From IMG/VR virus record IMGVR_UViG_2675903255_000015: 11,118 nucleotides of DNA; one strand, 5' to 3'. Position numbers and translations under genes: made by a program. Shown piece by piece: positions 5,921-9,568 of the stretch (positions are counted from its first letter, which is position 1; every line of letters starts with the position of its first letter). The notes under the pieces are model-generated. The model saw only the letters and a list, made by a program, of their open reading frames with translations. It was not told where the DNA came from and did not search any database. This DNA is from a virus (Duplodnaviria; Heunggongvirae; Uroviricota; Caudoviricetes).

Positions 5921-6443
5921 ACGCCCCCCTGGCAGACATTTGTTTATCTGCAAAGTAATATTGGTATTGCTGACGATACGCGTGCTTGAAAGCAATAGCT
6001 TTTTCTATAAGCTCGTCAGTCTCACGTTCCACAACAACTGGATCCGCAAAAAGCAGCCCGGACTCCACCACATCGCCATATTCTTTGTTTAACCCGGCGA
6101 TCATGTACGTAATGCTTTTTCCGTCAGTAATTTCACAATACAATCTGAAATCGCTGATCCGGATAGCCTCCATAATTGCCGGAATCAGCGCCGTGAATTT
6201 GTCACGCTTATCTCTGGTGTCGATAGCTTTCCAGCGTTCGAATATCTTCACCCGGTTAACGCCCAGCGCCCGTTGATCAACCTCGCCATCATTAAACGTG
6301 ACGCGTTGAACATCGATGTTCGGGCGTTCTTTCAGAGCCCAGAATGCTTCCGTGATTAATATCGTCGCCTGCTCCTGTGTCATTCCTGGTCGGCATACCC
6401 AGGTATCCAGAGCCTCACAAACCTGTTCAGTGGTGATTTTCAT
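5892..6443 (-). CDS. YdaT-like protein at the cII position (183 aa)
   Basis: ATG at 6443. Sits immediately downstream of the cro-like dicC and upstream of O. The segment KFTALIPAIMEAIRISDFRL resembles recalled Rac YdaT (...KLIPAILAILPRELRHRL). Overlaps dicC by 17 nt and the preferred O start by 29 nt. Confidence 0.6.
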   Translation of the reverse strand: MKITTEQVCEALDTWVCRPGMTQEQATILITEAFWALKERPNIDVQRVTFNDGEVDQRALGVNRVKIFERWKAIDTRDKRDKFTALIPAIMEAIRISDFRLYCEITDGKSITYMIAGLNKEYGDVVESGLLFADPVVVERETDELIEKAIAFKHAYRQQYQYYFADKQMSARGAYEYRCTTMG

Positions 6444-6654
6444 TGTTCAACCGCCCCGCCCGCTTTGCCTTACGATATTCGTCATAAACTTTGGGGTCGT
6501 ACTGAAGTTCCCCGCCGGATGCCTCTTGCAGGCGCATCGAGCGACCTTCAGGAACCAGTTCCCCCCATGCAGCAACGCTTGCCAGCCTAACTCCTGCGAC
6601 ATTGGCAAGCTTTGTTTTGCTGCCAAAAAACGCTATAGCATCAATTTTCAACAT
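6427..6654 (-). CDS. dicC: Cro-like regulator DicC (75 aa)
   Basis: ATG at 6654, divergent from dicA. Product MLKIDAIAFFGSKTKLANVAGVRLASVAAWGELVPEGRSMRLQEASGGELQYDPKVYDEYRKAKRAGRLNNENHH matches recalled K-12 DicC over most of its length. Confidence 0.8.
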   Translation of the reverse strand: MLKIDAIAFFGSKTKLANVAGVRLASVAAWGELVPEGRSMRLQEASGGELQYDPKVYDEYRKAKRAGRLNNENHH

Positions 6655-6730: not shown

Positions 6731-7138
6731 ATGAAAAACGAAACCTTCGGTGCTCGCCTCTTATACAGGCGAAAAAAATTAAAACTGTCTCAGGCCGCAT
6801 TAGGTAAGCTGGTCAAAGTGGCTCACGTAACAATTTCTCAATGGGAAAGAGATGAAACACAGCCAGCGGGGAAGAGATTATTCGCACTGAGCCAGGCGCT
6901 TCAGTGCTCGCCGACTTGGCTTCTTTTTGGAGATGAAGATAAGCAACCAGGCGAACCGATCCCAGATAATCAGCCAGTCAATCTGACAGAAGATCAAAAA
7001 GAGTTGCTTCAACTGTTCGACGCACTGCCTGAGTCAGAGCAAAAGGCTCTGTTGTCAGAGATGCGTGCTCGAGTTGAGAATTTCAACAAACTTTTTGAAG
7101 AACTACTCAAAGCTCGCAAAAGAAGCGCAAATAAATAA
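6731..7138 (+). CDS. dicA: prophage repressor DicA (HTH XRE family, 135 aa)
   Basis: Product MKNETFGARLLYRRKKLKLSQAALGKLVKVAHVTISQWERDETQPAGKRLFALSQALQCSPTWLLFGDEDKQPGEP...MRARVENFNKLFEELLKARKRSANK matches recalled K-12 DicA in length and sequence, with the HTH at residues about 20-40. Confidence 0.85.
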   Translation: MKNETFGARLLYRRKKLKLSQAALGKLVKVAHVTISQWERDETQPAGKRLFALSQALQCSPTWLLFGDEDKQPGEPIPDNQPVNLTEDQKELLQLFDALPESEQKALLSEMRARVENFNKLFEELLKARKRSANK

Positions 7139-7401: not shown

Positions 7402-7701
7402 ATGGCGCTTTATATTGATATCAGCGCCATTGCCGGACAGGTAAGAGTTATCAGAGCGGTAACTAAGCGGTATGCGCCTTTACTTCAGAAAGTCTCTGGT
7501 GAGTGCACCGAAGATATTGTCAACGATTTCGTCATCGAACTGCGAGGACTCATCTTCAGTTACAAGGTGACCACAATTTTTGCAGATGGCTCCCGCGAAA
7601 CTGTCAGAGCCCTGCGGCTTAAAGGATGTGTCAAAGACTTAGCCACCACATTCTGGGCAAGAAAACTTGATTGTATTCATAACCAATTTCCTCTCGAGTA
7701 A
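7402..7701 (+). CDS. hypothetical protein, 99 aa, first gene of the leftward early operon
   Basis: ATG at 7402 with no clear SD. Product MALYIDISAIAGQVRVIRAVTKRYAPLLQKVSGECTEDIVNDF... No family recognised. Confidence 0.45.
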   Translation: MALYIDISAIAGQVRVIRAVTKRYAPLLQKVSGECTEDIVNDFVIELRGLIFSYKVTTIFADGSRETVRALRLKGCVKDLATTFWARKLDCIHNQFPLE

Positions 7702-7773
7702 CAGACCCCTCAGAGGATACCACCTCGCCTGACGTGGTTAAAAAGCAGGCAACGCTAACCACAAGGAGCCGAC

Positions 7774-7992
7774 ATGCAGAAACGAGACCCCGTCATCATC
7801 GCGCCAGACTATACCGATGATGAACTTTATGAGTGGATGCACCAGAAAATTAAGGCGGTGCAGGACCTGAAATGGGCCAATGAAGCCAGGGCTAAGCAGG
7901 CTGAAAATCTGTCCGCTCTGGAGCAGGATATCACCAATCTGGAAAAAGCAGCGGCATTAAGCATTGCCAGAATGATTACATACCCACGTTAA
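7774..7992 (+). CDS. hypothetical coiled-coil protein, 72 aa (positional counterpart of ydfC)
   Basis: ATG at 7774 with AAGGAG 7 nt upstream. Product MQKRDPVIIAPDYTDDELYEWMHQKIKAVQDLKWANEARAKQAENLSALEQDITNLEKAAALSIARMITYPR. Confidence 0.6.
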   Translation: MQKRDPVIIAPDYTDDELYEWMHQKIKAVQDLKWANEARAKQAENLSALEQDITNLEKAAALSIARMITYPR

Positions 7993-8014
7993 TAGCTAAC
8001 CAACGAGGCTAATA

Positions 8015-8422
8015 ATGGAATTTAAAGATTTACCAACGCCATTACAGGAAATGGCATCGAATATAGTTCGTTCACAACTGGCTACTCTTGACCTTAGTAC
8101 CGCAGAAAAAGAAACCATCGATAATATGGTTCGTAATGTGCGCAATGCTTTTTCTGGGCTATATGGTTCTGATAATCAAAAGCAGGAAAGCGATGTTAAT
8201 AAACGGGTAATTTCTGTTTGCGTGAATGGCCATGTTCTTTCATCAATCAAAACAGAAACGGCGACAGTCTTCGATTGCCTTTGCATTGTACAGAGCCTTG
8301 TTGATGCCCTGTTTCGTTCAGTGAATTTAGAAAATGATGCAAATCTGCGAGGGCGCATAATAGCACATCCATATGCACATACTTTAGGCTCTGTGGATAT
8401 CAAAGATCCCACAAATCTTTAA
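8015..8422 (+). CDS. hypothetical protein, 135 aa, AT-rich moron
   Basis: ATG at 8015 with GAGG 6 nt upstream. AT-rich relative to flanks. Product MEFKDLPTPLQEMASNIVRSQLATLDLSTAEKETIDNMVRNVRNAFSGLYGSDNQKQESDVNKRVISVCVNGHVLSSIKTETATVFDCLCIVQSLVDALFRSVNLENDANLRGRIIAHPYAHTLGSVDIKDPTNL. No motif recognised. Confidence 0.6.
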   Translation: MEFKDLPTPLQEMASNIVRSQLATLDLSTAEKETIDNMVRNVRNAFSGLYGSDNQKQESDVNKRVISVCVNGHVLSSIKTETATVFDCLCIVQSLVDALFRSVNLENDANLRGRIIAHPYAHTLGSVDIKDPTNL

Positions 8423-8633
8423 TGAAATAGTTAACGCGAATTGTACTTGCTCTTTCGGTTGCTTTCAGAATACGCGTTGAAACTGCTGGCGGTAATTTGG
8501 TATTCCATTTATTAAAATCATGCCCGGGAAAGTACTCTTCGAAAATACTTTTAACTGCAGACTCGCCTATTGAAATGCTGCTTACCATGCGATTTTGATA
8601 AAGGCATTTAGCAATAAGAGTTGATTTTAACAT
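8400..8633 (-). CDS. hypothetical protein, 77 aa, convergent with and antisense to the early-left operon
   Basis: ATG at 8633 with AGGAGG 4-5 nt upstream on the minus strand. AT-rich. Its 3' end overlaps the 3' end of the 135-aa gene by 23 nt. Product MLKSTLIAKCLYQNRMVSSISIGESAVKSIFEEYFPGHDFNKWNTKLPPAVSTRILKATERASTIRVNYFIKDLWDL. Confidence 0.5.
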   Translation of the reverse strand: MLKSTLIAKCLYQNRMVSSISIGESAVKSIFEEYFPGHDFNKWNTKLPPAVSTRILKATERASTIRVNYFIKDLWDL

Positions 8634-8966
8634 TCACCCTCCTGAGGGTTGGTAATTAAGGAGTTCTCCACGGGTGAAGTGGAGTGCGTGCGCCGGACAC
8701 GGGTGAACATCCGGCACTGACAGTTTACTGAAAGGATATTTCTCTGAAAAGTCAGAGCATAACGCGAAAGCGCACGGCGAGGTTGCTGGTTCATAGATAG
8801 CCTGTCGTTAAATTTTCGTCGACCGTGCGCTTCCGGTTGTGGCACTCCGCGAAATGGCGCAGCGGTAAGTATGGCGGGGTTATTCCTTCCCCGTTGAGGA
8901 CACCGGGTTGTCAGGTTGACCATACGCTTAAGTGACAACCCCGCTGCAACGCCCTCTGTTATCAAT

Positions 8967-9022
8967 TTTCTGGTGACGTTTGGCGGCATCTGTTTGCCCA
9001 TGAACTGATGTCCGCCCTTTTT
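8967..9022 (+). ncRNA. dicF: DicF-like small regulatory RNA
   Basis: TTTCTGGTGACGTTTGGCGG... matches the recalled 5' end of K-12 DicF. It ends in a GGCGG...CCGCC stem followed by CTTTTT, and sits about 170 nt upstream of dicB, as in Qin. Confidence 0.7.
8982..9022 (+). terminator. intrinsic terminator forming the DicF 3' end
   Basis: GGCGGCATC...GATGTCCGCC stem (8982-9016) followed by TTTTT (9018-9022). Confidence 0.65.
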
Positions 9023-9191
9023 AAAGTGAATTTTGTGATGCAGTGAATGCGGCTAAGCGCACGCGGAACAGTTAAAGCTAAAAACAGTGTTATGGGTGGA
9101 TTCTCTGTATCCGGCGTTAATTGTTAACTGGTTAACGTCACCTGGAGGCACCAGGCACCGCATCACAAAATTCATTGTTGAGGACGCGATA

Positions 9192-9380
9192 ATGGAAACG
9201 TTATTACCAAACGTTAATACGTCTGAAGGTTGTTTTGAAATTGGTGTCACTATCAGTAACCCTGTATTTACTGAAGATGCCATTAACAAGAGAAAACACG
9301 AACGGGAGTTATTAAATAAAATATGCATTCTTTCAATGCTGGCCCGTTTACGTCCGATACAAAAAGGATGCTGGCAATGA
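9192..9380 (+). CDS. dicB: cell-division inhibitor DicB (62 aa)
   Basis: ATG at 9192 with GAGGA upstream. Product METLLPNVNTSEGCFEIGVTISNPVFTEDAINKRKHERELLNKICILSMLARLRPIQKGCWQ is near-identical to recalled K-12 DicB. The track ORF from 9087 is an upstream in-frame extension. Confidence 0.85.
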   Translation: METLLPNVNTSEGCFEIGVTISNPVFTEDAINKRKHERELLNKICILSMLARLRPIQKGCWQ

Positions 9381-9568
9381 ATACAGCATTTGCACTTGTT
9401 CTGACAGTTTTTCTTGTTTCCGGAGAGCCAGTTGATATTGCAGTCAGTGTTCACAGGACAATGCAGGAGTGTGTGACTGCAGCAACCGAACAGAAAATTC
9501 CCGGTAACTGTTACCCTGTCGATAAAGTTATTCACCAGGATAATAACGAAATCCCGGCAGGTCTTTAA
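9377..9568 (+). CDS. ydfD: YdfD-like small lysis protein (63 aa)
   Basis: ATG at 9377 overlaps the dicB TGA stop (ATGA). Product MNTAFALVLTVFLVSGEPVDIAVSVHRTMQECVTAATEQKIPGNCYPVDKVIHQDNNEIPAGL matches recalled K-12 YdfD. Confidence 0.8.
   Translation: MNTAFALVLTVFLVSGEPVDIAVSVHRTMQECVTAATEQKIPGNCYPVDKVIHQDNNEIPAGL

Follow-up and report, generated by a model that had tools for sequence, protein, structure and literature searches.

Lambda RexAB and P22 SieB-Esc are exclusion functions that are expressed in the lysogen from beside the repressor and have a built-in escape for the prophage. In SieB, self-immunity comes from an internal translation product, with no separate convergent gene. Polymorphic toxin-immunity loci (CDI, Rhs and colicin-type) have a conserved N-terminus, a variable C-terminal domain and a small neighbor gene that co-varies with it, downstream and co-directional. 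In type II toxin-antitoxin systems the genes are co-directional as well and form one autoregulated operon. BstA/aba is another exclusion system expressed in the lysogen beside cI with a built-in prophage escape, and its self-immunity is a DNA element (PMC8585504). The HK022 Nun protein is small, prophage expressed and RNA binding, is encoded near the immunity region, and acts on the transcripts of superinfecting phages; it is largely unstructured, uses an N-terminal arginine-rich motif for boxB RNA and has no cognate partner gene (PMC4124055, PMC5386594). Tha/Ith of S. aureus phage 80alpha combines a prophage effector that is active in the lysogen with a small cognate inhibitor that is required once the prophage itself starts to replicate. 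Both come from antisense overlapping transcription units in the lysogeny/early region, the defense gene lying in the cI operon and the inhibitor antisense to it, and cognate variants exist (PMC11087260).

The genes described here belong to a known kind of system, the prophage accessory pair that is antisense and near the immunity region, and as a described module this pair is new. They lie in a stretch of 11,118 nucleotides (the window) that covers the immunity and early-left part of a lambdoid prophage of the Qin type. Its genes are, in order, hokD/sok, paa, replication genes, a ydaT-like gene, dicC, dicA and a 99-aa gene, followed by ydfC, ORF135, ORF77, DicF, dicB, ydfD and an exonuclease gene. 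The hokD toxin gene is accompanied by a full-length sok antisense RNA (1549-1851; RF01794, 103.9 bits). From 7700 to 9400 the window is 100% identical to O157:H7 and O121:H19 chromosomes. Its counterpart in O157:H7 Sakai is prophage Sp9, integrated at ompW, where ORF135 is ECs_1763 (WP_000394552.1) and ORF77 is ECs_1762 (WP_000920491.1), both identical in sequence to the window. At least 80% of the 7700-9400 query is present in 653 of 5,426 complete E. coli genomes (~12%).

Two overlapping genes outside the described families

The pair and its parts are as follows.

8015-8422, plus strand: ORF135 (ECs1763, phrog_1363), 135 aa, ATG start, a two-domain early-operon protein
8015-8164, plus strand: N-terminal "MEFKDLP" domain of ORF135, about 50 aa, a predicted helical hairpin, found in at least seven alleles with unrelated C-termini
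8186-8422, plus strand: C-terminal P-domain of ORF135, about 75 aa (residues ~58-135), with homology to stand-alone proteins of 75-90 aa
8400-8633, minus strand: ORF77 (ECs1762, phrog_10348), 77 aa, ATG start, a predicted all-helical, basic protein
8400-8422, both strands: tail-to-tail coding overlap of 23 nt

These coordinates and the 23-nt overlap confirm the convergent, overlapping pair of the preliminary description. The strong Shine-Dalgarno sequences it reported are also present: GAGG 7 nt ahead of the ORF135 ATG and AGGAGG 4 nt ahead of that of ORF77. The same holds for its remark that the pair is AT-rich against its flanks, with a GC content of 0.392 across 8013-8647 compared to 0.480 in the left flank and 0.467 in the right (39% against 47-48%). 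GC at third codon positions is 0.29 and 0.31 for the ORF135/ORF77 pair and 0.55 for ydfC. Both genes are under purifying selection, with a median dN/dS of 0.16 (ORF77) and 0.25 (C-terminal domain of ORF135). Given ORF77 homologs in about ten genera, the low dN/dS, a high-pLDDT model of ORF77 and RefSeq annotation of both, ORF135 and ORF77 are real genes and not chance open reading frames.

In its AlphaFold2 model (pLDDT 74.6), ORF135 consists of a helical hairpin, a disordered linker (residues 49-59) and a beta-hairpin/alpha domain. PHROGs 6937, 2151, 9419 and 33007 match it solely at residues 1-55 to 1-72. The P-domain is 32-37% identical to its stand-alone relatives (phrog_23433), with profile E values down to 1e-37. 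A ROS/MucR match on ORF135 was weak (E 0.088), and we treated it as noise. ORF77 is modeled as a five-helix fold with a pLDDT of 96.7. Its homologs, 77 aa long and 55-72% identical, come from about ten enterobacterial genera, including Klebsiella, Raoultella, Dickeya, Xenorhabdus, Salmonella, Morganella, Yersinia and Serratia; an exhaustive HMM search gave 158 clusters at the 50% identity level, with Trp43 invariant. ORF77 is thus the better conserved of the two (55-72% identity, against 32-37% for the partner). Its C-terminus inside the overlap, FIKDLW, is nearly invariant, whereas the tail of the partner varies.

Neither protein belongs to a described family or solved fold. The preliminary description had recognized no family in either product, and our searches of Pfam, NCBIfam and PADLOC, which returned no family match, and of PDB by sequence and profile, which returned no match, agree. 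SieB (PF14163), RexA/RexB and KilA-N domains are absent from both proteins, with no Pfam or PADLOC match at E <= 1, and neither contains a known toxin or antitoxin superfamily (RelE/ParE, MazF, HicA, Phd, etc.). A HEPN domain was looked for in the candidate effector and is absent. A BFVD search returned only a member of the same family, Pfam searches of 68 distant ORF77 relatives gave nothing useful, and comparison of folds and domains found no known RNA-binding domain or fold in ORF77. Both proteins are full-length members of PHROG families (phrog_1363, E 4.8e-47; phrog_10348, E 1.1e-47). Since phrog_1363, phrog_23433 and phrog_10348 carry no functional annotation, this membership is uninformative on function. 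The name "dGTP triphosphohydrolase" given to ORF77 by one public source is implausible for 77 aa and is probably an annotation error.

A polymorphic slot in the early-left operon

The surroundings of the pair comprise the following features.

6427-6654, minus strand: dicC
6731-7138, plus strand: dicA
7402-7701, plus strand: 99-aa gene, phrog_21318 (function not known), in place of ydfA and ydfB of K-12 Qin
7774-7992, plus strand: ydfC, upstream limit of the slot
8013-8647: cassette missing in K-12 Qin; left junction directly after ...GGCTAA, right junction directly before GGTTGGTAATTAAGGAG
8634-8647, minus strand: ORF77 ribosome-binding region, CCTCAGGAGGGTGA, common to most other slot alleles, where it stands before unrelated minus-strand genes
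8648-8967: conserved non-coding spacer, on the plus strand the dicF precursor; the ORF77 promoter must be here or beyond
8968-9017, plus strand: DicF sRNA copy (RF00039, 43.5 bits against a gathering score of 48), downstream limit of the slot

The pair sits between the DicA-controlled, promoter-proximal genes and dicF-dicB-ydfD, and so within the dicB (early-left) operon. This supports the location first proposed, upstream of DicF with the minus-strand gene opposing the operon. Aligned with K-12 Qin, exactly window positions ~8013-8647 are absent, a clean 635-bp difference from just 5' of the ORF135 ATG through the ORF77 ribosome-binding site. The distance from ydfC to dicF in K-12, put at about 165 nt in the preliminary description, measures 340 nt. 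As for the idea of an inserted cassette, K-12 Qin does lack the pair and the difference is clean, but an inserted moron is too simple a description: by sequence comparison, the slot is polymorphic and the pair one of its alleles. This view follows from what the alleles share, namely the N-terminal coding region of the plus-strand gene and, mostly, the 5' region of the minus-strand gene. We compared the window with loci L003, L176, L178, L181, L208 and L214. There are at least seven alleles. Every plus-strand gene starts with the same ~50-aa MEFKDLP N-terminus and then diverges completely, and each is typically opposed by a different small minus-strand gene.

Plus 135 aa, minus 77 aa, overlap 23 nt
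Plus 201 aa, minus 63 aa, overlap 23 nt
Plus 106-109 aa, minus 91 aa, overlap 23 or 32 nt
Plus 124-126 aa, minus 73 aa, overlap 11 nt; many 124-aa copies have no minus-strand gene
Plus 133 aa, minus 76 aa, overlap 41 nt
Plus 208-212 aa, minus 69 aa, overlap 0 nt
Plus 122 aa, minus ~100 aa, overlap 77 nt

In most alleles, a common minus-strand ribosome-binding region, CCTCAGGAGGGTGAA, and the non-coding spacer to dicF are kept. With the N-terminal coding region and the antisense 5' region as shared flanks, the exchanged unit is the C-terminal domain together with the antisense gene. Pfam searches of four plus-strand variants and six minus-strand proteins found no domain, be it toxin, secretion or delivery; PHROGs assigned five of the six minus-strand proteins to families whose function is not known and gave no match for the sixth. 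The E. coli slot is a polymorphic cassette site made wholly of uncharacterized protein families. The same cassette allele occurs with S24 CI, DicA-like and other repressors, with no link to immunity type.

Several smaller observations were made at the slot and its borders. Overlap lengths of 11, 23, 26, 32, 41 and 77 nt among slot alleles are all 2 mod 3, with 0 and 15 as exceptions, and an overlap of exactly 23 nt recurs in three unrelated alleles. The DicF copy of the window keeps the 5' seed region and has a terminator hairpin loop unlike that of K-12; in locus L003, part of the DicF 5' region is missing. The spacer between DicF and dicB (9006-9211, plus strand) has a weak match to the STnc100 sRNA (32.5 bits; gathering score 47). 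In O121:H19, an IS600 (L268 650-1806, corresponding to window ~7993-8014) separates ydfC from ORF135 and probably disconnects ORF135 and the genes that follow it from the DicA-controlled promoter.

A conserved module and its transcription

Outside this slot, the P-domain travels with ORF77. Among 91 loci with an ORF77 homolog, from several enterobacterial genera, a convergent P-domain ORF is present at 90, and the remaining locus is truncated at the end of its contig. Of these overlaps, 87 measure 23 nt and three 26 nt. A Leclercia pair overlaps by 23 nt; a much more divergent Citrobacter pair is still convergent, with an overlap of 51 nt. In Citrobacter (L264/L265 3501-3920) a ClpX-type C4 zinc finger (PF06689) takes the place of the MEFKDLP domain as fusion partner of the P-domain, and the fused gene opposes a divergent ORF77 relative of 78 aa. 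The P-domain without ORF77 was seen only in the 201-aa allele of E. coli, a recent recombinant with P-domain DNA nearly the same as that of the window. In L094, L096 and L152, ORF77 is disrupted and the partner is intact. In other genera both are found as a pair that opens the pL operon; the C-terminal ~75-aa domain of ORF135 plus ORF77, and not the whole of ORF135, is the functional unit. ORF77 and the P-domain make up a two-gene accessory module that is conserved in lambdoid prophages. It occurs in about 12% of complete E. coli genomes and in the prophages of numerous enterobacterial genera.

The position in the operon was read from other prophages. The module adjoins an S24-type cI gene in the prophages of Klebsiella, Serratia and Salmonella that we examined, and in Leclercia and Citrobacter the P-domain gene is a neighbor of cI. 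Operator-like repeats are common to the cI-cro gap and the gap between cI and the partner gene. In the loci from Klebsiella, Serratia and Salmonella, sigma-70-like promoters of the partner strand coincide in part with these operators; the Serratia and Salmonella loci also have terminator-like sites 3' of cI. Together, these shared operators, overlapping promoters and terminator-like sites place the P-domain gene first in the CI-repressed pL operon, with ORF77 antisense to this operon. Defense genes are found nearby. In a Salmonella prophage, sieB adjoins the ORF77 homolog and is co-oriented with it, and in Serratia (L010 4713-5636, minus strand) a 307-aa PADLOC candidate, PDC-S42 (E 1.2e-85), lies between cI and the module.

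A candidate promoter for the minus-strand gene was visible outside E. coli. The motif GTGGTATC(T/C)T is invariant ~35 nt 5' of the ATG in 9 of 13 non-E. coli ORF77 homologs compared; it resembles an extended -10 element, with TTCACC at -35. A conserved upstream element, GCCTGtCTTTTCACCACaTCAGGCtCGGTGGTATCTTGG...CACACAACCAAGAAG, located ~30-75 nt before the ORF77 homolog in L007, L010, L013, L014, L087, L092, L093, L173 and L266, is the candidate extended -10 promoter. An inverted repeat, GCCTG-N14-CAGGC, overlaps the candidate promoter and has a compensatory version, GCCGGG/CCCGGC, in Serratia; it may be an operator. We also considered a structured RNA for the upstream element, with 9 predicted pairs, one pair-keeping change on both sides and -6 kcal/mol, and a promoter is the better fit. 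In E. coli the region upstream of ORF77 lacks this element, and a simple promoter scan of the window found no convincing ORF77 promoter. The sole candidate in the spacer is weak (TTTTCA-17-TAAACT, ~8750-8722, minus strand).

We considered a 124-aa ORF antisense to DicF (8627-9001, minus strand) as an upstream cistron. Its stop overlaps the ORF77 start (GAATGTTAA), and its frame is open over more than 110 codons in K-12 and two other alleles. We judged it non-coding, since variable columns show no codon-position bias (37, 44 and 43) and indels break the frame; among 27 spacer variants, there are indels of 1, 2, 5, 10 and 16 nt within it. Separately, long inverted repeats occur in L007 (3780-3868; 28 nt, 82% complementarity) and L012 (3850-3931; 19 nt, 95%), ~70-220 nt upstream of the ORF77 homolog and within the early-left transcription unit. 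A cis-acting RNA element of the pL transcript is a possible reading of these repeats.

A candidate switch, its alternatives and known systems

Published data on the Sakai copies bear on function. ECs1763 was picked out in 2009 as an EHEC-specific hypothetical gene and later served as a PCR marker (PMC2713265, PMC4060028, PMC5702452). In a 2025 study of the EHEC RNA-binding proteome, TRAPP, which uses UV crosslinking, significantly enriched native ECs1762 from uninduced Sakai cultures grown in MEM-HEPES, and tagged ECs1762 gave PNK labeling above background, which confirms crosslinking to RNA; the authors report no detectable RNA-binding domain (PMC7618764). By its detection and crosslinking in uninduced cells, ECs1762, the product of the minus-strand gene, is shown to be made in the lysogen and to contact RNA. 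This answers the concern, voiced in the preliminary description, that the minus strand might not be expressed. DNA-binding proteins such as cI were enriched by TRAPP as well (PMC7618764), so RNA may not be the physiological ligand of ECs1762. Our literature search found no publication linking ECs1762 with ECs1763 or describing the slot. The EHEC marker and the RNA-associated protein are two halves of one conserved module.

We propose that the module could be a state switch, in which one gene is under the prophage repressor and the facing gene is expressed in the lysogen. In a lysogen, the early operon would be off, and ORF77 would be transcribed from its own promoter, with the transcript running antisense into the partner gene. 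Upon derepression or infection, strong early transcription would collide with that of ORF77 and silence it. The same transcription would also yield the P-domain protein, which would bind and neutralize ORF77 protein already present. Convergent transcription and sense/antisense pairing would make expression of the two genes mutually exclusive, and the pair would be inherited as a cognate unit. The weakest step is the role of ORF77, which would be that of a lysogen-expressed, RNA-directed effector harming superinfecting phages; the early partner would then provide cognate self-immunity, protecting the prophage's own lytic growth. We infer the protein-protein antagonism, the transcriptional interference and any anti-phage role. 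Superinfection exclusion, toxin and anti-defense functions, which the preliminary description named as typical of such sites, are hypotheses for this pair.

Our preferred reading, which we put forward tentatively, is that ORF77 may be an RNA-directed effector of the lysogen, most plausibly acting against superinfection, and the early P-domain protein its cognate antagonist. It draws support from the co-occurrence, the geometry, the early-operon position, the candidate ORF77 promoter, the RNA crosslinking and the polymorphism of the alleles. It also has precedents in the antisense operon of Tha/Ith and in BstA beside cI, and would follow the logic of Tha/Ith, BstA/aba and HK022 Nun with unrelated proteins. 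What favors ORF77 as the effector is that it is the more conserved member, that plus-strand genes occur without an antisense gene (as in many 124-aa alleles), which fits an orphan antidote, that sieB in Salmonella and the candidate PDC-S42 in Serratia are neighbors, and that the polymorphism is arms-race-like. Against the effector/antagonist reading are the lack of a match of either protein to a defense, toxin or antitoxin family or solved fold, the 201-aa allele that retains the P-domain without ORF77, the E. coli promoter scan, and the enrichment of DNA-binding proteins such as cI by TRAPP.

The polarity may be reversed. The early P-domain protein, and the other C-terminal domains, would then be host-directed effectors (shut-off or anti-defense) that do harm if expression is leaky, and ORF77 would be the antidote of the lysogen, its antisense RNA silencing the effector until induction. 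Architecture and co-occurrence fit this too, the conserved N-terminus, variable C-terminus and variable small neighbor recall polymorphic toxin/immunity loci, an immediate-early anti-host function would suit the first gene after pL, and ORF77 is made in the lysogen. However, a toxin would stand unprotected in the many 124-aa alleles without an antisense gene and in L094, L096 and L152, where ORF77 is broken and its partner intact. Furthermore, greater conservation is unusual for an antidote, an antidote that binds RNA requires an extra assumption, and no toxin-like domain was found in the Pfam and PADLOC searches. We consider the reversed polarity unlikely.

Another improbable alternative is that the module is regulatory. 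ORF77 would be a nucleic-acid-binding regulator, or its transcript a cis-antisense RNA, or both, tuning the early-left operon including DicF/DicB, for example, by blocking translation of leaky early transcripts or causing their decay or termination, with the early partner relieving this on induction. Crosslinking of ORF77 to RNA in the lysogen, the sense/antisense transcript pairing that a convergent overlap ensures, and the position at the very start of the pL operon all agree with such a role; the inverted repeat over the candidate promoter, with its pair-keeping change in Serratia, is compatible with autoregulation. Yet the module is dispensable, being absent from K-12 Qin and most lambdoid phages and replaced by unrelated cassettes, the cassette allele is independent of immunity type, and the element conserved upstream of ORF77 in other genera is missing in E. 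coli. Finally, we give very little credence to two independent accessory genes that are merely adjacent, with the overlap resulting from genome compaction: phage genomes are compact mosaics, and the 201-aa allele does split the P-domain from ORF77, but the pair co-occurs in 90 of 91 loci across genera, is always convergent and overlapping, and persists despite divergence of the partner to 32-37% identity and different N-terminal fusions.

The effector/antagonist reading has a broader form, to which we assign a low probability. The ydfC-dicF slot and the first position after pL would hold polymorphic cognate pairs, each a small, nucleic-acid-binding lysogen effector of new fold, ORF77 being one type, and a specific early neutralizer, the neutralizer being built on a common N-terminal handle for recombinational exchange of cassettes. 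If true, this would be a new class of RNA-level self/non-self discrimination among competing lambdoid phages, switched by convergent transcription. In any case, the module is a testable candidate for a new prophage switch and provides a context for the RNA targets of ECs1762.

How do these features compare to known systems? The pair differs from type II toxin-antitoxin operons in being convergent, with overlapping 3' ends at every locus examined. The slot resembles polymorphic toxin-immunity loci in its conserved N-terminal region and variable C-terminal domains, with at least seven variants. Unlike theirs, its proteins are small (106-212 aa) and cytoplasmic, without a secretion-associated or known toxin domain, and the partner is convergent. 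No sequence or domain similarity connects the window proteins with RexAB, SieB or BstA; what these systems have in common with the proposed roles is lysogen expression near the repressor combined with prophage escape. Nun shares with ORF77 its small size, prophage expression, RNA contact and location, and action on superinfecting phage transcripts is for ORF77 a proposal. ORF77 has a folded five-helix model and an N-terminus, MLKSTLIAKCLYQNR, without a Nun-type arginine-rich motif, and shows no similarity to Nun. The likeness to Tha/Ith of 80alpha extends to the proposed roles of lysogen effector and cognate inhibitor and to the antisense geometry of the genes. The proteins are unrelated, with a HEPN domain in neither window protein, and the arrangement is inverted, in that the antisense gene of the window is the one made in the lysogen. 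If ORF77 and its partner are indeed a defense with cognate self-immunity, they would be a new, protein-based and RNA-level addition to the short list formed by BstA/aba and Tha/Ith.
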